In this document: piece after piece, positions 1-7,306 of the stretch
Position numbering within the stretch: position 1 is the stretch's first letter
Layout: every line of letters starts with the position of its first letter
Source of the DNA: a virus
Lineage: Duplodnaviria; Heunggongvirae; Uroviricota; Caudoviricetes
Reading direction: 5' to 3' (one strand)
IMG/VR virus record: IMGVR_UViG_2713896791_000024
Location: 1-7,835 of that record
Length of the DNA: 7,835 bases
Position numbers and translations under genes: made by a program
The notes under the pieces: model-generated
What the model saw: only the letters and a program-made list of their open reading frames with translations
Told to the model about the DNA's origin: nothing
The model's database searches: none

Positions 1-20
1 TTTCAAAATATTCCGCTATT

Positions 21-56
21 TGCTCCCAATGCAAAACATATATTGCATTGGGAGCA
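21..56 (+). terminator. Inverted repeat with T-rich tail; candidate intrinsic terminator for a plus-strand gene ending upstream of the window, or a protein-binding palindrome
   Basis: Seen in sequence: TGCTCCCAATGCA (21-33) and its exact reverse complement TGCATTGGGAGCA (44-56), separated by 10 nt (one extra A:T pair is possible) and followed by TATTCATATTTTTGTTATT. On the minus strand no T-run follows the stem, so it is unlikely to terminate the 184..489 ORF. Confidence 0.35.
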
Positions 57-183
57 TATTCATATTTTTGTTATTATTGTATGAAATCGTCTCATGTACA
101 CGGTCCTTTTTTCGCCGAAAACTGATATTACTTTAATCAAAAGTTGACGTGCCAGATTCGAAGTAAATTTATAAAATATCAAA

Positions 184-489
184 TCAATATACATTTTGCA
201 CCTTCGAGATAGTAATGACTGTTACTGTAACATGAGTTACAAACAGCTTCATACCCAGAGCTACTGATGTATCAACTCGATTCAACAATACCCGATATTT
301 ATTCCATGCCTCCAGCAACGATCTTTCTTCCTCCGTTGCGATTTCCAGATCTACAGCATCCTGCAGTGGCGCAATATACTCACTGAATTCCTGGATGTAG
401 AACTGTGTGGTGACGGTCTTCCAGCCATTCAGCTCCTGCTGTATCGAAGCATACCAGGCTATTTCAATATCGCTATGCTGCGGCAGCAT
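184..489 (-). CDS. Small ORF (101 aa) carrying a tail fibre assembly (Tfa) C-terminal motif; probable remnant or paralogue of a second tfa 3' end
   Basis: Residues ~38-76 ([40 protein letters not shown]) match the C-terminal region of the tfa product at 3002..3577 (36 of 40 residues by eye). At DNA level 265..386 aligns with 3038..3159 at about 105 of 122 positions (manual alignment), in direct orientation. ATG at 489 is immediately preceded by an in-frame stop; an AAGGGG Shine-Dalgarno-like motif lies only 3 nt upstream. The N-terminal 37 aa and C-terminal 25 aa do not resemble Tfa. Confidence 0.45.
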
Positions 490-545
490 TTAACCCCTTG
501 TAATTCATCGCCATAATTGATTTAATTCACAAATAAAACTATAAC

Positions 546-1214
546 ATGGTGAAATTAATGAAAAAAAACACAGATGATGGGGCTAAAATTTACACACCAC
601 TTACCCTAAAGCTTTATGACTGGTGGGTTTTGGGAGTATCAAATCGGCTTGCATGGGGATGTCCTACAAAGGAACACCTTCTTCCACACTTTCTGGAACA
701 TTTAGGTAACAACCATCTGGATATTGGTGTTGGAACTGGGTTTTACCTTACTCACGTACCTGAGAGTAGTCTGATATCTTTAATGGATTTGAACGAAGCT
801 AGCCTGAACGCGGCATCTACAAGGGCTGGGGAATCAAAAATTAAACATAAAATTAACCATGATGTTTTTGAACCTTATCCCGCGGCGTTACATGGTCAAT
901 TTGATTCCATTTCCATGTTTTACCTTCTTCACTGCCTGCCTGGAAATATATCTACAAAAAGCTGTGTAATACGCAATGCGGCGCAGGCCTTAACTGACGA
1001 TGGAACTCTATACGGAGCCACAATTCTTGGCGATGGAGTTGTGCACAATAGCTTCGGTCAAAAACTGATGCGCATTTACAATCAGAAAGGCATCTTTTCA
1101 AACACAAAAGATTCCGAAGAAGGCTTAACACATATACTCTCAGAGCATTTCGAGAATGTTAAAACCAAGGTTCAAGGTACTGTAGTAATGTTTTCCGCTT
1201 CAGGGAAAAAATAG
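546..1214 (+). CDS. Class I SAM-dependent methyltransferase, probably small-molecule type (UbiE/COQ5-like fold), substrate unknown
   Basis: 222-aa ORF with Rossmann-fold methyltransferase motifs read from the translation: motif I LDIGVGTG, acidic post-I LMDLN, motif II FDSISMFYLLHCL, motif III LTDDGTLYGATI. N-terminal YDWW...S...W pattern resembles the UbiE-family signature. No DPPY/NPPY motif, so probably not an N6-adenine DNA methyltransferase. Start is uncertain: ATG at 546 lacks an obvious Shine-Dalgarno, ATG at 558 has GGTGA 5 nt upstream. Visibly more AT-rich than the tail genes. Family assignment is from memory, not a search. Confidence 0.7.
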   Translation: MVKLMKKNTDDGAKIYTPLTLKLYDWWVLGVSNRLAWGCPTKEHLLPHFLEHLGNNHLDIGVGTGFYLTHVPESSLISLMDLNEASLNAASTRAGESKIKHKINHDVFEPYPAALHGQFDSISMFYLLHCLPGNISTKSCVIRNAAQALTDDGTLYGATILGDGVVHNSFGQKLMRIYNQKGIFSNTKDSEEGLTHILSEHFENVKTKVQGTVVMFSASGKK

Positions 1215-1220
1215 CATCCA

Positions 1221-1261
1221 ACCGCAGCACGTTCTTGCATAAGGCGTGTCTGCGGTTTTTC
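1221..1261 (+). terminator. Candidate Rho-independent terminator downstream of the methyltransferase gene
   Basis: ACCGCAGCACG (1221-1231) pairs with CGTGTCTGCGGT (1245-1256) with one bulged T, followed by TTTTT (1256-1260); begins 7 nt after the TAG stop at 1212-1214. Confidence 0.5.
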
Positions 1262-1579
1262 AACTATTCAGATACATCACTCCCATCACATTCATTCCTC
1301 CGCATCATAGGCATATAGGCTATATCACCTTGATATTTTTCTTCTTCAGATAAAAACTGTTATCTATGTATACTTTTAAACCCAATCCGTGTAGAGTCTC
1401 TGCATAAGATAGTTTGCAGTTGCCACTTCAGCTTGCGCCATAAACCGCCTGATTTTTGCCGCCACCTGTTAGCATTCCTGTATACCTGAAACGACAATGT
1501 TTATCTACGAACTTTAAGAACACCCAGGATAAAAATTGTCAACTATATCATATATAACACATTACTAATTCGAGGCTAT

Positions 1580-1693
1580 ATGAACAGCATACTGATAATC
1601 ACTTCGCTCCTTATCATATTCAGCATTTTTAGTCATGCTCTAATAAAATTAGGGATTGGCATATCCAATAACCCAGACAAAACCGATGTATAA
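1580..1693 (+). CDS. Candidate 37-codon small hydrophobic protein (single predicted transmembrane helix) in the leader upstream of the ydfK-like gene
   Basis: ATG 1580, TAA 1691-1693; translation [41 protein letters not shown] at 1572-1575 lies 4 nt upstream of the ATG. Below the size cutoff of the supplied ORF track. AT-rich DNA readily yields Ile/Leu/Phe-rich ORFs by chance, so this is tentative. Confidence 0.3.
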
Positions 1694-1761
1694 GTCAACA
1701 TATCCTGAATCAGACATACAATATCGCAATGAAAATCAATAATATTTTAAGGAATATCTTC

Positions 1762-1995
1762 ATGAAATCAAAAGACACCCTAAAGTGGTTCCCTGCGCAG
1801 CTTCCTGAAGTAAGAATTATCCTAGGGGATGCTGTAGTGGAAGTAGCAAAACAGGGAAGACCTATCAATACCAGAACATTGCTTGATTACATTGAAGGAA
1901 ACATAAAGAAAAAGTCATGGCTGGATAACAAAGAATTATTACAAACAGCGATATCAGTTCTTAAAGACAACAAAAATTTAAATGGTAAAATGTAA
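1762..1995 (+). CDS. ydfK: YnaE/YdfK-family small protein (the cold-shock-induced small proteins encoded beside pinR/pinQ in E. coli K-12 Rac and Qin prophages)
   Basis: 77-aa product MKSKDTLKWFPAQLPEVRIILGDAVVEVAKQGRPINTRTLLDYIEGNIKKKSWLDNKELLQTAISVLKDNKNLNGKM. I chose the ATG at 1762 (AAGGAA Shine-Dalgarno at 1749-1754) over the upstream in-frame ATG at 1729. Immediately upstream of, and co-oriented with, a pin gene, as in the K-12 ydfK-pinQ and pinR-ynaE neighbourhoods. Family and gene order are recalled from memory. Confidence 0.7.
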   Translation: MKSKDTLKWFPAQLPEVRIILGDAVVEVAKQGRPINTRTLLDYIEGNIKKKSWLDNKELLQTAISVLKDNKNLNGKM

Positions 1996-2224
1996 TATAA
2001 TAAACTTACTTTTTTATCATTTTTCCACTTTAACAACATTTTGCTCCACTTTTCCACGACCAAACAACTTGAAATCTGGTTAAAATAACACGCAACACTA
2101 TTCTTCTTCCTTGAGTCCGCCCGGAACTCGAAAAACAAACCGAGTTAAGGCCATTTTTCACAAAATCGATTTTGGGTCTCACCAAAATTACGGGGTTGCA
2201 TACGCATTCGTTTATTTTCGAACG

Positions 2225-2288
2225 TGTACATACAAATATGTACAAAAATAATCAAAATTATTTTCTGAGATGCATTATGATATGTACA
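2225..2288. promoter_or_regulatory. Cluster of TGTACA-containing palindromic sites upstream of pin; candidate operator or promoter-overlapping binding sites
   Basis: TGTACATA-caaa-TATGTACA at 2225-2244 is a perfect 8-4-8 inverted repeat; ATATGTACA recurs at 2280-2288, 44 bp after the copy at 2236-2244. All lie 25-90 bp upstream of the pin ATG at 2314. Function is inferred only. Confidence 0.3.
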
Positions 2289-2313
2289 CCAATTTCGTAT
2301 AGAAGATCTCACT

Positions 2314-2904
2314 ATGTCTCGAATTTATGCTTACTGTCGGGTATCAACTCTGGAACAGACAACCAAAAATCAACGTCGGGAAATCGAAAGTGCAGGTTTT
2401 AACATCAAATCTCAGCAAATAATTGAAGAACAAATTAGCGGCTCAGCAGCAACCAGTGAGCGTCCTGGTTTTAACCAGTTGCTTGATCGACTGAAAAGAG
2501 GTGATGCATTGATTGTCACAAAACTGGATCGCCTCGGTTGTAATCCAATGGATATCAGTAAAACGGTGGAACAACTGACCAAAGCAGGTATCAAAGTGCA
2601 TTGCTTAGCATTGGGGGGCGTTGACCTGACCAGTCCACCTGGAAAAATGATGATGCAAGTAATTTCAGCAGTCGCTGAATTTGAGCGAGACCTTTTACTT
2701 GAGCGTACTCATTCAGGGATATTAAGAGCACGGGGCGCAGGAAAGCGATTTGGTCGCCCACCTGTGTTAAATGATGAACAAATACAGAGGGTACTAGAGC
2801 AAATTAAGTCAGGTATAAATATAAGTGACATTGCCCAAGAATTCAAAACCTCGCGGCAAACCATTTTAAGAGCTAAAGCAAAAAATCAGACACCTGATAT
2901 ATAA
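2314..2904 (+). CDS. pin: Serine recombinase of the resolvase/invertase family (Pin-like DNA invertase), with Cys at the position of a conserved catalytic Arg
   Basis: 196-aa ORF. N-terminal catalytic domain with YCRVSTLEQ (Ser11 aligning to the Ser10 nucleophile of gamma-delta/Tn3 resolvase) and [10 protein letters not shown]; C-terminal helix-turn-helix region ([10 protein letters not shown]...[20 protein letters not shown]). The usual DRLGR motif reads DRLGCN (Cys76, TGT at 2539-2541). Convergent with tfa, as in K-12 pinQ-tfaQ. Confidence 0.9.
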
Positions 2905-2908
2905 AAAT

Positions 2909-2936
2909 AATCTCGGTGTGAGATTCCTTACGTTTT
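2909..2936 (+). terminator. Weak hairpin plus T-tract after pin; possible terminator
   Basis: AATCTC (2909-2914) pairs with GAGATT (2920-2925) around a 5-nt loop; a TTTT tract follows at 2933-2936, 7 nt after the stem. AT-rich short stem, so weak. Confidence 0.25.
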
Positions 2937-3001
2937 CCAAGCCCCCCTTCCTAGCCTTAAATGGAAAGATACTTCTAATTATAGAATTTATATATCTTAC
3001 C

Positions 3002-3577
3002 CTACGGTAGGGCTGGCCATTCAATATCCGGTGCAGTTGATGTATCAACACGGTTCAGCAACACCCGATACTTTTTCCAGGCTTCCAGCAACAAGGTTTC
3101 TTCCTCCGTTGCGATCTCCAGATCCACAGCATCCTGAAGCGGCGCAATATGCTCACTGGCTACCTGCATCAGGCTGTTTTTTGTTTCTTCCGCCTCCCGG
3201 ATCCGGAACAGTTTTTCTGCTTCCGTATCCTTCACCCAGGCTGTGCCGTTCCACTTCTGATATTCCCCTCCCGGCGATAACCAGGTAACATTTTCCGGTA
3301 ACGGACCGAGTTCAGAAATAAATAACGCGTCGCCGGAAGCCACGTCATAAACCGTTTTACCCCGATGATCTTCAACGAGATGCCACGATGCCTCATCACT
3401 GTTGAAAACAGCCACGAAGCCTGCCGGAATATCTGGCGGTGCAATATCGATACTGTTTGCTGGCAGACCTGTATGAGGCGGAATATATGCGTCACCTTCA
3501 CCAATAAATTCATTAGTTCCTGCCAGCAGATTATAAATTTTTATGGTCCGTGGTTGTTCACTCATTCTGAATGCCAT
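3002..3577 (-). CDS. tfa: Tail fibre assembly protein (lambda Tfa family)
   Basis: 191-aa product beginning [41 protein letters not shown], matching lambda Tfa as I recall it over nearly its whole length. ATG at 3575-3577 overlaps the stf stop codon (3577-3579) by one nucleotide (TAATG on the minus strand), implying translational coupling. Confidence 0.93.
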
Positions 3578-6492
3578 TATGCAAGCCTCACAATGTAGTT
3601 AAATGCGATGTTTTTGACAGTGTTTTCCGCGTTACCAGCAGCGTTAACGGTGATGGTGTGTCCATGTGAGCCAATCGCAACAGAGTGCGTATGAGCACCA
3701 ATACCGACAGTATGTGCGTGAGCACCTGCAGATGCAGCTGTGCCGCTGACACTATGAGTGTGCGCTCCTGCAGCACTTGTATTCACACTGGCCGCAGACA
3801 CTACCTTATGTACTGACCCATTTTGTGACCACTGGCTGACTGCTGATGCGCCTGTGACACTATGAGTATGGTTTCCGGCACTTGCGGCTGTACCGCTCAC
3901 ACTGTGCGTATGCGCCCCGGTGTTATTCGTGGATTTAGTGCCGTAATCAAACGACGATGTGGTTTTCGTCCCCAAATCCGTACTGGATGCACTGGCGCTG
4001 TGGGTGTGCGATTTAATGCCGTCCTGTTCCTGAGACAATACGGCCCGACCACTGGCAGGTTTGCCCTTAATCGTCCAGCCACGCATATCAGGGATCACGC
4101 CTGACGGATAAGCGGTTGCAAGTTTCGGGTAAGCGGATTTGTCAAAAGTCTGCCCCTGCATCAGGGCATAACCAGACGGAACGGTATCTGATGGCCACGG
4201 GATTGGTGCGCCAGGCGGATAAAACTGCTCTGATGGTGTATAGAGTGAATAAACTGTACCGTCCGTTAACCCTTCCGGCTTATTAGCAGAATATGCTGGT
4301 GACGTATGAATAGTCACGCTGGCATTACTGGTATAATCCCATTGAATATTTACACCAGTCGCATAATTTCCGATTGCAACGTAAATATCGTAAGTATCAC
4401 CAGATGTATTGACCCAGGCAAAATTTGTAAACCCTGTCGATGTGCGCTGCCATAAAGCACCAGTAATCCCCTTCGGATTACCATTACCTGCACGCAAAAC
4501 AAGTTCAGATATACCTGCCTGTTGAGGTGACCCCACGTTAAATCCCGCGCCACCAATCAACGTAATTGAAACAACAGAACTCGCCTGTGGCATGGTTACC
4601 GTTGCTAATTTGAACCAACCAGCACCACCGCTGAATGACATTGTTGTTGAGTTAAGCGTACCAATATCTTTCGGCGTCAGTGTTATATCCGCTGAAAGCG
4701 CCTTACCATTCACCTTACGGGCAGAAGGTACCCGACCATTCGCATTATCATTAGCTGCTTTCACTGCTTTCGGTGTCGCGGCAAGCGTTTCAGATGCGCT
4801 GTTGGTTGCACTACTGAGCTGGACAATTCCTTTTTGTGCTGTCGTAGCGTCCTGAGCAGTATATTTCCCGTTAGCAAGGTCATAGGCTGCCTTTACCGAC
4901 TTTGGCGTTGCCGCCAGCATTTCAGATGTGCTGTTGGTCGCGCTGCTGAGCTGAACTATCCCTTTCTGTGCTGTCGTTGCATCCTGTGCGGTGTATTTCC
5001 CGTTAGCCAGCTCATACGCGGCCTTAACGGCTTTTGGCGTTGCCGCCAGTGACTCGGAAGTGCTGTTAGTCGCACTGCTGAGCTGTACTATCCCCTTTTT
5101 CGTCGTGCTCGCATCCTCAAGCGCCACGGCGGATGCAATATCCTCTGCCCGTTTTGCCGCTGTCTCGGCGCGCGTTGCCGCGGATTCCGCCGTACTTTTG
5201 CTCTGAGCTGCCGCCGTCGCACTGCCAGCTGCCTCTGTCGCCTTCGTGGATGCCGTCGTGGCGCTGCCCTTTGCTGCTGACGCCTGTCTGGTCGCCTCAT
5301 CTTTTGAAGCAGACGCAGATGATGCCGATGACGCCGCCGAACTGGCGGACGATGCGGCAGCCGTTTTTGAGGATTCTGCGCTGGTTTCCGACGCTTTCGC
5401 GTTCGTCTCGGATGTCTTCGCTGCGGAAGCAGACCTCGCTGCTGCGCTGGCCTGTTCAGTGGCTTCGCCAGCCTTCGTTGTGGCTGTTGAAGCGGACGAT
5501 GCGGCGCTTTCTGCCGATTTTCCGGCAGCGGTGGCACTGGCTGAGGCCTGCCCGGCACTTGTTGACGCGGCACTGGCAGACGACGCAGCCGCTGTTTTTG
5601 AGCCTGCCGCAGCTGAGGCGCTCTGTCCCGCTGCCGTCTCAGAAGACCTGGCGTTCGTCTCGGACGTTTTTGCCGCCTTCGCGGAATTTGCTGCCGCCGT
5701 TGCCGAGGAAGCTGCGCTACTGGCGCTCGAGGATGCGTTCGTTTCTGATGATTTTGCCGCCTCTTTTGAAGCCGACGCATCCCGGGCTGAGGTGGCAGCT
5801 TCTGACGCTTTCGTGGTCGCGGTGGATGCAGAAGTGGCGGCTGATTGTTGTGACGCTGCAGCATTCGTTTCTGACGTTTTCGCGGCAGCGGCACTGGTAG
5901 CTGCCGCGCTTTTTGAGGACTCTGCAGCGGCAGCACTTTTTTCCGCTTCAGTGGCCTTTGTTGATGCCGTTCCTGCGCTGGAAGACGCTGACTGAGCCGA
6001 CGAAGCGGCCTGTCCGGCTGACGTGCTGGCTGCACGTGCTGAATCTGCAGCATCAGTCGCATGGGTTGCCGCCTCACGGGCAGATGTGCCGGCATCACTG
6101 GCTGACTTCTTCGCGGCTGCCGTGTTCTGTGCCACCACGGACGCGTTACGCGCCACCTCTTCCACCATCTGTTCAAAACGGCGCAGTGCCTCCGGACGGG
6201 CATCATCCTCCGTCATGGCACCGAGAAAATCATTCAGCGTACCGGGTTGAGAATCTTCATACACGGTGATGGTCCCGGCATGTGACGGCGGGAATCCTTC
6301 CACCAACAGAATAACGCTGTACTGCCCGTACTCAACGTCCATGCTGTAACGCCCGGCTTCATCCGGATTTTCTGAGGCCAGCGTGTTCACCACCACCGTG
6401 GTGCTGTTACGTTTTGCTTTCAGCTGGATTGTGCAGTTCTGTACCGGTTTTCCTGTGCCGTCTTTCAGTACACCTGAAATCTTTACTGCCAT
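3577..6492 (-). CDS. stf: Side tail fibre protein (lambda Stf family), 971 aa
   Basis: Starts [26 protein letters not shown], matching the lambda Stf N-terminus as I recall it. Contains a long Ala/Ser/Thr-rich fibrous region, three tandem 44-aa repeats ([27 protein letters not shown]...), and a C-terminal tip with repeated His-x-His motifs. Start is placed at the ATG at 6490-6492 (GGGGTGA Shine-Dalgarno-like motif just upstream); the ORF-track extension to 6612 reads through the N-gap and the lom terminator and is an artefact. An identical start context is duplicated after the gap at 6567-6569. Confidence 0.9.
4750..5097 (-). repeat. Three tandem copies (two full, one partial) of a 132-bp unit inside stf encoding a 44-aa phage tail fibre repeat
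   Basis: The string CTGAGCTG recurs at 4814, 4946 and 5078 on the plus strand (period 132 bp). Protein repeats [44 protein letters not shown] occur three times, the last diverging after KAVKAA. Confidence 0.8.
5100..6000 (-). repeat. Low-complexity Ala/Ser/Thr-rich region of stf with degenerate internal repeats (AAKTSETNA-type)
   Basis: The translation contains several [18 protein letters not shown]-like units within a roughly 300-aa Ala/Ser/Thr-rich stretch. GCN-rich codons generate long artefactual ORFs in other frames on both strands. Confidence 0.75.
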
Positions 6493-6503
6493 ATTCACCC
6501 CAC

Positions 6504-6553: not shown

Positions 6554-6579
6554 AAATCTTTACTGCCATATTCACCCCA

Positions 6580-6607
6580 CAAAAAAGCCCGCCTGAACCG
6601 GCGGGCT
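6580..6607 (-). terminator. Rho-independent terminator downstream of lom, immediately upstream of the stf ribosome-binding site
   Basis: Minus strand reads AGCCCGCC-GGTTCA-GGCGGGCT (8-bp GC-rich stem, 6-nt loop) followed by TTTTTTG; plus-strand stem arms at 6586-6593 and 6600-6607, A-run at 6581-6586. Confidence 0.75.
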
Positions 6608-6633: not shown

Positions 6634-7257
6634 TCAGAATTTATAACCGACCCCCACAATGAAACCGTCAGTGCGCCAGTCGCCACTGCCGGAGCCTTCA
6701 TAAGCAAGGTCAATAACCACCGTCTCTACGGGACTGAACTGAATCCCGGCATTCCAGGCCGGCGACAGATGACGCGCAGTATGACCATCACTGGCGGTGG
6801 TGGTCTCCTTCACATACCCCGGTTTCACTTCATCACGCCGGTAATCCTGAACACTGTCAGACCAGCGGGTGTACGCCATCCCGGCCATGCCATAGAGACT
6901 GACCCGCTCACTGAGCTGCCAGACAGGGCCGGCCATCAGACTGACATAACGACCGCGCAGGCTTTCATAATGGAAGGTATTTTCACCCGTCTTCATCGTG
7001 TCACTTTTCTTCACCGATGCATAACTCAGCGCGACAATGCCGCCCAGGTGATCCGTGAACTCATAACGGTATTTCACGTTAATCCCTTTTAAATCACCTG
7101 CACGCGCACCGGTACCGGACAATGCCGGTACGCCGCCCGGGTGAACCTGAGCATATCCCACGGAAAATGCACCGTGTCCGCTTTCAGCCTGTGCAGGAAA
7201 GGCAATTCCTGCCAGCAGGGTAGTAAACAATAATATCGTTGCGTATAAATGCCGCAT
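6634..7257 (-). CDS. lom: Lom-like outer-membrane protein (Ail/Lom/PagC family 8-strand beta-barrel)
   Basis: 207-aa product MRHLYATILLFTTLLAGIAFPAQA|ESGHGAFSVGYAQ... ending ...DWRTDGFIVGVGYKF, with signal peptide and C-terminal aromatic residue; closely resembles lambda Lom as I recall it. Start chosen at ATG 7255-7257 with AAGAGG Shine-Dalgarno 5 nt upstream; the ORF-track extension to 7293 runs into the upstream terminator. Confidence 0.9.
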   Translation of the reverse strand: MRHLYATILLFTTLLAGIAFPAQAESGHGAFSVGYAQVHPGGVPALSGTGARAGDLKGINVKYRYEFTDHLGGIVALSYASVKKSDTMKTGENTFHYESLRGRYVSLMAGPVWQLSERVSLYGMAGMAYTRWSDSVQDYRRDEVKPGYVKETTTASDGHTARHLSPAWNAGIQFSPVETVVIDLAYEGSGSGDWRTDGFIVGVGYKF

Positions 7258-7281
7258 GATTACCTCTTTGTTTTCAGTCAA

Positions 7282-7306
7282 TAAAAAAGGCACCTCCTGA
7301 GGTGCC
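7282..7306 (-). terminator. Rho-independent terminator between the J-like gene and lom
   Basis: Minus strand reads GGCACCT-CAGG-AGGTGCC followed by TTTTTTATT; plus-strand coordinates 7289-7306 for the palindrome and 7283-7288 for the A-run. Confidence 0.65.

Follow-up and report, generated by a model that had tools for sequence, protein, structure and literature searches.

In the transposons Tn3 and gamma-delta (Tn1000) the res site lies directly upstream of the gene for a small serine recombinase. The promoters of Tn3 lie inside res and are autoregulated by resolvase binding (PMC7157771). Exchange at subsite I of res is also a source of mosaic transposons (PMC7157771). DNA invertases have two inverted crossover sites around the invertible segment and a Fis enhancer, and they lack subsites II and III, the accessory ones.

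PinQ and PinR were uncharacterised before a 2025 report that they protect E. coli against T2 by inverting DNA of another prophage (PMC12529663). Both are reported to invert the P segment of e14 at the sites TTCTCCCAAACCAA, PinQ being described as an invertase that acts in trans on the e14 pix sites, and pinQ and pinR are induced 14-fold upon T2 infection (PMC12529663). Expression of the two genes also shifts with alkylation stress (PMC6505713). None of the papers searched mentions a res site for either pinQ or pinR. Here we compare the DNA upstream of a gene of this type, pin, with these systems.

The pin locus

The window, by which we mean the whole stretch of 7,835 bp that was analysed, comes from the tail-fibre end of an E. 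coli lambdoid prophage of the Qin/Rac type, judged by its open reading frames and by matches to annotated genomes. It includes ynfT and the following genes.

184-489, minus strand, fragment of tfa
546-1214, methyltransferase gene
1762-1995, plus strand, cold-shock gene ydfK
2314-2904, plus strand, pin, encoding a small serine recombinase of 196 amino acids of the pinQ/pinR type, with a resolvase catalytic domain and HTH_7
3002-3577, minus strand, tfa, from the open reading frame list and annotated-genome matches
3577 to about 6500, minus strand, side tail fibre gene (stf), containing a gap of Ns
6634-7293, minus strand, lom, from the open reading frame list and annotated-genome matches

The start codon of pin is at 2314. 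The Pin protein is 85% identical to K-12 PinQ and contains the Pfam domains PF00239 (Resolvase) and PF02796 (HTH_7). The spacer between ydfK and pin is 318 bp long; in the collection searched, 2801 of the 5426 complete E. coli genomes have it, as do 11 phage records. An Rfam scan of 1-3100 at E<=1 gave no match inside this spacer; the sole matches were IS009 in the tail-fibre-assembly sequences and weak chance ones. No terminator-like site was found by a scan between the two genes. According to a tiling-array note, transcription may read through from ydfK into pin.

The TGTACA cluster

The spacer contains a cluster of the palindromic hexamer TGTACA, which an earlier note on this DNA had read either as an operator for a dimeric regulator of pin or as a recombinase accessory site. 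There are exactly four copies of TGTACA in the window, one at 95-100 and three in the cluster, at 2225-2230, 2239-2244 and 2283-2288 (hexamers 1, 2 and 3). The coordinates given in that note are correct, as is its description of 2225-2244 as a perfect 8-4-8 inverted repeat, TGTACATA-caaa-TATGTACA. In addition ATATGTACA is repeated at 2280-2288, and a second perfect 8-4-8 repeat with the same caaa spacer, AAAATAAT-caaa-ATTATTTT, directly adjoins the first at 2245-2264.

Clustering was assessed with sets of 1000 dinucleotide shuffles each of the whole window, of its AT-rich part (1-2313) and of the intergenic region. Four copies of TGTACA in 7.8 kb are not unusual, the shuffle mean being 1.83 per window, and at least four copies were present in 22 of 200 shuffles. 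Three copies of TGTACA within 64 bp were seen in 0 of 1000 shuffles, and to that extent the clustering claim stands. Three copies of any one of the 64 palindromic hexamers within 64 bp were found in 4-5% of shuffles, so the cluster is only marginally beyond chance. The palindrome is likewise unremarkable, since a perfect inverted repeat of the form 8-N(0-10)-8 is present in 71% of shuffled windows. These frequencies count in favour of a vestigial or chance cluster, made of decaying res remains or of AT-rich promoter DNA with no present function.

The copy at 95-100 had been listed as a fourth member of the group (94-101). It could form part of a dyad at 78-100, TGTATGAAATCG-TC-TCATGTACA, whose score of 10.3 lies inside the shuffle range (mean of the best dyad 9.0, 95th percentile 14.1). 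Its genomic context is also different, downstream of an alpha/beta hydrolase gene and beside an older tail-fibre-assembly remnant. This copy is probably due to chance and outside the element. On the same grounds of score and context we discarded the dyad at 78-100 as a second recombination site bracketing a 2.1-kb cassette. An inverted repeat between 2256-2271 and 2409-2424 (16 nt, 94%) was considered as an mRNA stem or an extra half-site; it was put down to chance, its partner in the coding region not being conserved as DNA in the relatives.

Relatives of Pin

There are 1850 relatives of Pin among plasmids and few intermediate ones among phage records. Pin shares 58-80% identity with plasmid resolvases and with TnpR proteins of the Tn3 family. 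The recombinase of the IncF plasmid pAPEC-O1-ColBM is 80% identical to Pin, and its gene adjoins a toxin-antitoxin pair. TnpR relatives belonging to Tn3-family transposons are found on Leclercia, Salmonella and Klebsiella plasmids. TnpR genes with products 72-73% identical to Pin lie 158 bp from divergent Tn3-family transposases, and this gap is the canonical position of res. With identities of 72-80% and the domain pair Resolvase and HTH_7, Pin falls in a clade of resolvases that stand in resolvase contexts. Described family members are more remote: Pin is distant from gamma-delta resolvase (phmmer E about 5e-23) and from Gin (E about 2e-27, the same order as for gamma-delta resolvase), and much more distant from Sin (E about 1e-6). 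The homology of the upstream DNA, described next, suggests that PinQ and PinR group with the resolvases rather than with the Gin/Hin invertases they were named after.

The 115 bp upstream of the recombinase gene were aligned for 13 loci with 58-100% identity at the protein level. The upstream DNA of the relatives aligns with 2199-2313 of the window, from subsite I through the ATG. The conserved blocks of this alignment are six half-sites and a -10 element, and the spacers between them diverge. In the relatives the half-site consensus is TGTMCGAAA, in six copies, and the -10 element is TATAAT. The layout of the family consists of an inverted 12-2-12 pair, an unconserved gap of 14 bp, an inverted pair spanning 32 bp, the -10 element and two head-to-tail copies.

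This layout was checked in 32 further distinct upstream regions, taken from viral-contig relatives of two distant family members. The half-site cores of these regions lie at about -117, -91, -77, -45, -26 and -13 from the ATG, and those of the window at -115, -90, -75, -44, -26 and -13 from the ATG of pin. Over the 150 bp upstream, TGTHC cores number 101 in the 32 regions; a coding control has 14. Within a locus the half-site word shifts in concert: it is TGTACTAAA in an Erwinia phage group, TGTATCGRAA in another group and TGTCCGTAT on a Serratia plasmid. Such concerted change is a signature of co-evolution between the sites and the protein that binds them.

The gene is called pin and adjoins stf and tfa, which raises the reading that a Gin/Hin/Pin-type inversion system acts on the tail-fibre genes nearby, with the motifs as its crossover site or enhancer. 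The reported inversion of the e14 P segment by PinQ and PinR would agree with this, and in our own comparison the pix half-site resembles that of the family (TCTCCCAAACC against TGTCCGAAACC). We consider this reading extremely improbable. Pin is about 38% identical to PinE (PMC12529663), as against 72-80% to its relatives in resolvase contexts. The window contains no inverted pair of crossover sites, and the pix word is matched, at three mismatches, only by both arms of a hairpin (21-56). The pin and tfa genes are convergent, an inverted alternative tail-fibre segment is absent, and the fragment of tfa at 184-489 is repeated in direct rather than inverted orientation.

A res-like site upstream of pin

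The following parts of a res-like site are recognised in the window; counts are matches to the nine positions of the family consensus.

2199-2224, no strand assigned, res-like subsite I, a 12-2-12 dyad of 26 bp, CATACGCATTCG TT TATTTTCGAACG
2211-2212, centre TT of subsite I, the presumed crossover site in the relatives
2225-2238, no strand assigned, I-II spacer of 14 bp, TGTACATACAAATA, holding hexamer 1, which is the left arm of the palindrome
2239-2270, no strand assigned, res-like subsite II, a 32-bp dyad of two inverted half-sites
2239-2247, left half-site of subsite II, TGTACAAAA, which is hexamer 2, 8/9
2262-2270, right half-site of subsite II, TTTCTGAGA, 7/9
2277-2288, minus strand, first half-site of subsite III, which is hexamer 3, reverse complement TGTACATAT, 6/9
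2290-2301, minus strand, second half-site of subsite III, reverse complement TATACGAAA, 8/9

Relative to the ATG of pin, subsite I occupies -115 to -90, subsite II -75 to -44 and subsite III -37 to -13, so that the presumed crossover subsite is distal and the accessory subsites are gene-proximal. The window contains a single copy of this array. Subsites I and II are inverted pairs, and the half-sites of subsite III run in the same direction in the window and in all relatives.

Subsite I can be aligned, in every column, to TGTCCGAAAnCG-nn-CGGTTTCGTACA of the plasmid and Tn3-family relatives; its left half is degenerate (5/9) and its right half matches at 7/9. The length of 14 bp of the I-II spacer is conserved and its sequence is not, the relatives having CCTCGCAAACAATA, TTGTTAAACAGATA, TCACTTACAACATC and others, with no TGTMC core. 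Subsite II aligns, for example, with the site TGTACAAAAATAGGTTAAATTAATTTCGTACA of an Arsenophonus plasmid. In the relatives the aligned counterparts of the first subsite III half-site are TTCGGACA, TTCGTACA and AAGTACA, the G, A, C and A columns being invariant. The second is head-to-tail with the first and aligns with ATTTCGTACA. With cores at -26 and -13 from the ATG, these two half-sites keep to the positions seen in the family.

A position weight matrix (PWM) was built from the non-prophage relatives only and run over the whole window. The best match is the left half-site of subsite II and the second-best is the second half-site of subsite III. A stretch of 110 bp contains five matches that reach 6 bits or more; four of these are distinct, one being a palindromic hexamer read on the other strand. 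None of 300 shuffles equals this cluster, at either the 6-bit or the 7-bit threshold. Among dyads of the family lengths, subsite II (32 bp) is the best of the whole window and subsite I (26 bp) the third-best. Single dyad scores in the window, including that of subsite I, are within the shuffle range, and the case therefore rests on alignment, homology and position.

Out of 54 consensus positions the window matches 41 (5, 7, 8, 7, 6 and 8 of 9), K-12 39 and phage 2H10 41, compared with 48-51 in the enterobacterial plasmid and transposon relatives. Four of the six half-sites of the window still match at 7-8 of 9. This, the PWM cluster and the exact coincidence of hexamers 2 and 3 with half-site positions of the family all argue against a cluster that is merely chance or vestigial. 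The coincidence also supports, for these two hexamers, the idea of a recombinase accessory site. The idea does not extend to hexamer 1, which lies in the spacer. By their alignment the motifs appear mostly to be remnants of binding sites of the recombinase family, not the operator of a separate regulator.

Alleles of the pin upstream region

The last 100 bp before pin were surveyed in 90 fetched loci and fall into 14 haplotypes. A scan of the genome collection with a single-protein query gave 9 loci, all of them close relatives. All three hexamers are intact in the window-type haplotype alone, which pairs with a Pin allele that is 85% identical to PinQ. The exact 115 bp of the window (2199-2313) are present at 99% identity or more in 130 of 2794 matching E. 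coli records (about 5%). K-12 Qin, K-12 Rac and the majority of loci have TGTACA, TGCACA and TGAACA at the three positions, and phage 2H10 has TATACA, TGTACA (or TGTGCA) and TGTACA. The active phages mEp460 and Tritos carry an allele with one intact hexamer, as K-12 does.

Conservation upstream of pin orthologues, which the earlier note had named as a check on its reading, is lacking for TGTACA as such: alleles with TATACA, TGCACA, TGTGCA and TGAACA occur. The recognition word of the family is TGTMCGAAA, and the orthologues vary without symmetric compensation. Hexamer 1 itself is TATACA or TGCACA in other prophage alleles. In every haplotype except that of the window the arms of the palindrome match at 7/8 or 6/8, and no symmetric compensating changes were seen in the 14 haplotypes.

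These data bear on the possibility that the region is the operator of a separate dimeric factor of the host or phage, with TGTACATA-N4-TATGTACA centred at -53.5 from the transcription start and a third site at the start. A perfect palindrome of 20 bp upstream of a promoter with a weak -35 element, as in the window allele, would suit such a factor, as would the responses of pinQ and pinR to T2 (PMC12529663) and to alkylation stress (PMC6505713). The palindrome is imperfect and uncompensated in all other alleles, however, and its left arm falls within a spacer whose sequence is unrelated across all relatives. Its span of 20 bp is also shorter than the 26-bp and 32-bp dyads of the family, which counts against it as the operator unit. 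The right arm and the third copy are already explained by recombinase half-sites. We regard a separate factor as most unlikely.

Up to about 2224 the window and K-12 share 99-100% identity; beyond this point, and through pin, identity is about 90%. Within the three hexamers the two differ at 2 of 18 positions, which is the background rate of this block of about 10% divergence. The junction lies somewhere in 2125-2241, a range that includes the centre of subsite I. An exchange at subsite I would be compatible with this junction, but other pairs of alleles switch elsewhere, and we do not adopt it. A break in homology at the left edge of subsite I in another locus (L049) was also considered as a site-specific junction; it is in fact an insertion of the IS903 type, with the C-terminus of the transposase and a terminal repeat present.

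Among the prophage alleles 11 of 54 half-site columns and 9 of 50 spacer columns are variable, as read from the alignments by eye. This visual reading gives no sign of purifying selection on the prophage half-sites at present.

An element without present function, whether vestigial or due to chance, would account for several of these observations: three intact hexamers in only about 5% of the E. coli records that have the region, one intact hexamer in K-12, mEp460 and Tritos, motif differences at the rate of the surrounding block, and degraded half-sites not visibly more constrained than spacers. Set against this are the family half-site positions and the PWM cluster described above, together with an intact pin gene whose K-12 alleles are reported to be active (PMC12529663). 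Taking both sides together, we consider this explanation unlikely.

The pin promoter

The transcription start of K-12 pinR has been mapped to 1431722 (10 reads) and that of pinQ to 1631622 (6 reads) (Kim et al. 2012 supplement, PMC3415461). Both mapped starts give a leader of 24 nt, and the string from -50 to +1 ends in ...TTATGATATGAACA (PMC3415461). A second start listed for pinQ is leaderless, at the ATG (PMC3415461). Transferred to the window by alignment, or found by scan, the promoter elements are as follows.

2225-2252, plus strand, predicted sigma-70 promoter TGTACA-16-AATAAT from a consensus scan, with hexamer 1 as its -35
2252-2257, plus strand, weak -35-like TCAAAA midway through subsite II, separated from the -10 by 18 bp, assigned by position only
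2276-2281, plus strand, -10 element TATGAT, at -12 to -7 of the K-12-mapped start
2288, plus strand, start of pin transcription as placed by homology to K-12, at the final base of hexamer 3

The -10 hexamer is near-invariant in the 13-locus alignment, and most relatives have TATAAT there. Distant relatives have TTGACA or TTGACG in the centre of subsite II, which makes the position of the promoter a feature of the family. By the K-12 data the promoter of pin is embedded in the site, with the -10 between subsites II and III and the start inside subsite III; these data come from K-12 alleles, with 6-10 reads in duplicated sequence, and the leader of the window has a 2-bp insertion.

The hexamers might also be nothing other than core promoter elements, hexamer 1 being a -35 and hexamer 3 the initiation region, with RNA polymerase acting alone. 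The mapped start at the last base of hexamer 3 and the scan match TGTACA-16-AATAAT would fit, and genomic SELEX with RNA polymerase-sigma70 gave peaks in both K-12 spacers, with TGTACA and AATAAT listed as the predicted hexamers for pinQ and pinR (Shimada et al. 2014, PMC3946193). The minor-sigma SELEX tables have peaks upstream of ydfK and ynaE only. Promoter elements would leave unexplained the coincidence of hexamers 2 and 3 with half-sites of relatives that have no TGTACA -35, and the retrieved pinQ and pinR entries of the PMC3415461 supplement include no start downstream of AATAAT. As an explanation of the whole cluster, promoter elements are very unlikely; they are compatible with a res-type site rather than exclusive of it, and TGTACA-16-AATAAT is predicted to be an alternative or secondary promoter.

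A probable degraded res-type site

We consider it likely that 2199-2301 is a degraded res-type site, inherited with pin and lying over the pin promoter, whose surviving role, if any, would be regulatory. Hexamers 2 and 3 would be half-site cores, the former of the left half-site of subsite II and the latter of the first one in subsite III. Hexamer 1, in the I-II spacer, would be a lineage-specific accident that happens to complete the 8-4-8 palindrome. Counting against this reading, the invertase activity reported for PinQ on the e14 pix sites in trans (PMC12529663) has no need of a res.

Pin dimers may occupy subsites II and III and in this way repress the promoter of pin, in the manner of Tn3 resolvase at its res. 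With the -35 region inside subsite II, the -10 between II and III and the start inside III, binding of Pin would block the promoter. Autoregulation of its own promoter by Pin is the most likely role of the element under our analysis. The operator proposed in the earlier note survives in part, in that the region plausibly controls pin; the dimeric protein would most likely be Pin itself, not a separate regulator.

The site appears partly decayed, as judged from the 39-41 matches of 54 in the prophage alleles and from half-site columns that are about as variable as the spacers. Given this decay, regulation of pin by Pin seems plausible in the prophage and recombination at subsite I seems doubtful.

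A more far-reaching proposal is that Pin and the res of Qin/Rac-type prophages are still a working pair, with autorepression until a signal such as phage infection, and with exchange at subsite I between this res and that of a co-resident prophage or an IncF plasmid. The IncF plasmid is a candidate partner because its recombinase is 80% identical to Pin and its res can be aligned. We think this rather unlikely. If true, it would drive the swapping of modules, or the formation of cointegrates, between phage and plasmid. In that case PinQ and PinR would be resolvases that have their own native substrate, and their reported inversion of the e14 P segment would reflect a secondary activity at similar-looking half-sites.

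An element of the res type is of a well-known kind. Its interest here is that the homology of the pin upstream DNA to resolvase arrays, over a mapped promoter, yields a concrete and testable model of autorepression, and that the half-site word TGTMCGAAA is now defined for binding studies. A literature search with the half-site words found nothing relevant. For annotation, motif clusters upstream of small serine recombinase genes should be compared first with the res sites of relatives.

Comparison with known systems

The subsites of gamma-delta res are in the order I, II, III, tnpR, and the order at pin is the same. The gamma-delta half-sites CGTCCGAAA, TGTCCGATA and TGTCTATTA are almost identical to the word TGTMCGAAA of the pin family. 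The geometry differs: gamma-delta has a subsite I of 28 bp, a gap of 22 bp, a subsite II of 34 bp, a gap of 5 bp and an inverted subsite III of 25 bp, whereas pin has 26 bp, a gap of 14 bp, 32 bp and then two head-to-tail half-sites. Subsite III is therefore inverted in gamma-delta and head-to-tail at pin.

In the res sites of Sin and beta, from plasmids of Gram-positive bacteria, an accessory subsite consists of directly repeated half-sites, like subsite III of pin. Unlike pin, these sites have two subsites and an architectural protein (Hbsu or IHF).

The crossover sites gix, hix, cix and pix and subsite I of pin are all 26-bp dyads of the 12-2-12 form. In our own comparison pix, TTCTCCCAAACC, is similar to the subsite I half-site of the family, TGTCCGAAACCG, with the motif offset by one base from the centre. 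Such a resemblance could account for the trans action on pix that is reported for PinQ. The arrangement of paired crossover sites and enhancer typical of the invertases is not seen at pin.

The closest counterparts are the IncF plasmid pAPEC-O1-ColBM and the TnpR relatives, which agree with pin in the positions of all six half-sites and of the -10, and in the leader. Their sites were assigned by position, repetition and concerted variation, and no footprint or resolution assay for them was found in the literature searched. The pin module differs from Tn3 and gamma-delta in having neither a transposase nor transposon ends, and it is located at the tail-fibre end of a lambdoid prophage. Unlike those of its relatives, the half-sites of the pin prophage are degraded: the IncF and TnpR relatives match the consensus at 48-51 of 54 positions and have TATAAT, in contrast to 41 of 54 and TATGAT in the window.

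Mosaic structure of the pin upstream region

The window was compared across positions 1500-3100 with K-12 (L002, L003) and phage 2H10 (L004). The window is 99-100% identical to K-12 up to about 2224, and identity is then about 90% through pin to about 3100. The Pin proteins of K-12 and 2H10 are nearly identical (194/196); the DNA upstream of pin in these two differs by about 10%, and the transition falls near 2286-2300. Since divergence changes at about 2224 between the window and K-12, and near 2286-2300 between K-12 and 2H10, the allele junctions lie within the res-like region or at its borders. The same region is interrupted in a K-12-type pin locus (L049), where an IS903-type element (positions 1-545 of L049) has inserted into the left half of subsite I; it is recognised by the C-terminus of its transposase and the terminal repeat GGCTTTGTTGAATAAATC.

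Two inverted repeats are found near the pin start:

2245-2264, AAAATAAT-caaa-ATTATTTT, a second perfect inverted repeat of the 8-4-8 form, adjoining the one at 2225-2244 on its downstream side and with an identical spacer
2256-2271 and 2409-2424, inverted repeat of 16 nt, 94%, AATTATTTTCTGAGAT / ATCTCAGCAAATAATT, either side of the pin start

The former spans the middle of subsite II together with the -35 region, and is imperfect both in the K-12 allele, which has the spacer CATA, and in the 2H10 allele. The downstream arm of the latter falls within the codons for KSQQII and is not conserved at the DNA level in relatives; this repeat is probably due to chance.

Transcription of ydfK

The K-12 start-site table gives a ydfK start with a leader of 325 nt, counted to an older annotated start. 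This start corresponds to about position 1405 of the window, with TAGAGT as the -10 element, and the stretch 1405-1761 precedes ydfK. In a tiling-array study, ydfK and pinQ are reported to form a single region of differential expression, so transcription reading through from ydfK may also extend into pin.

Repeats outside the pin region

Further repeats and a gap occur at the left end of the window and in the tail-fibre genes:

18-59, inverted repeat ATTTGCTCCCAATGCAA / TTGCATTGGGAGCATAT, 17 bp, 94% complementary, 8-nt loop, with a T-rich stretch after it
251-396 and 3024-3169, direct repeat of 146 nt, 82% identity
6504-6553, run of 50 N at the start of the tail-fibre gene

The repeat at 18-59 lies directly downstream of an alpha/beta hydrolase gene, one that is seen in O103:H2 strain 12009, and appears to be the terminator of that gene. 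Its arms are the only matches in the window, at three mismatches, to the e14 pix word (the crossover-site sequence of the e14 P-segment inversion).

One copy of the direct repeat is the C-terminal part of tfa; the other, 2.8 kb away, is a fragment of tfa. Both match Rfam IS009, at 107.6 and 62.5 bits, below the gathering score of 117. The fragment is part of an older prophage remnant, which in strain 12009 adjoins ompT, envY and nfrA. An exact duplication of 27 bp borders the N run on its two sides (6477-6503 and 6554-6580); run and duplication together look like a scaffolding artefact that falsely extends the tail-fibre open reading frame.

A palindrome upstream of subsite I

One further symmetric element precedes subsite I by 25 bp:

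2161-2174, perfect palindrome of 14 bp, CAAAATCGATTTTG

The 2H10-type allele has AAAAATCGATTTTT at this position, a symmetric change of both outer bases, but the intermediate haplotypes A...G and A...A are found as well. The palindrome may be an additional binding site or a coincidence. Its core, AAATCGATTTT, is also contained in site II of gamma-delta res (L107, positions 341-351).
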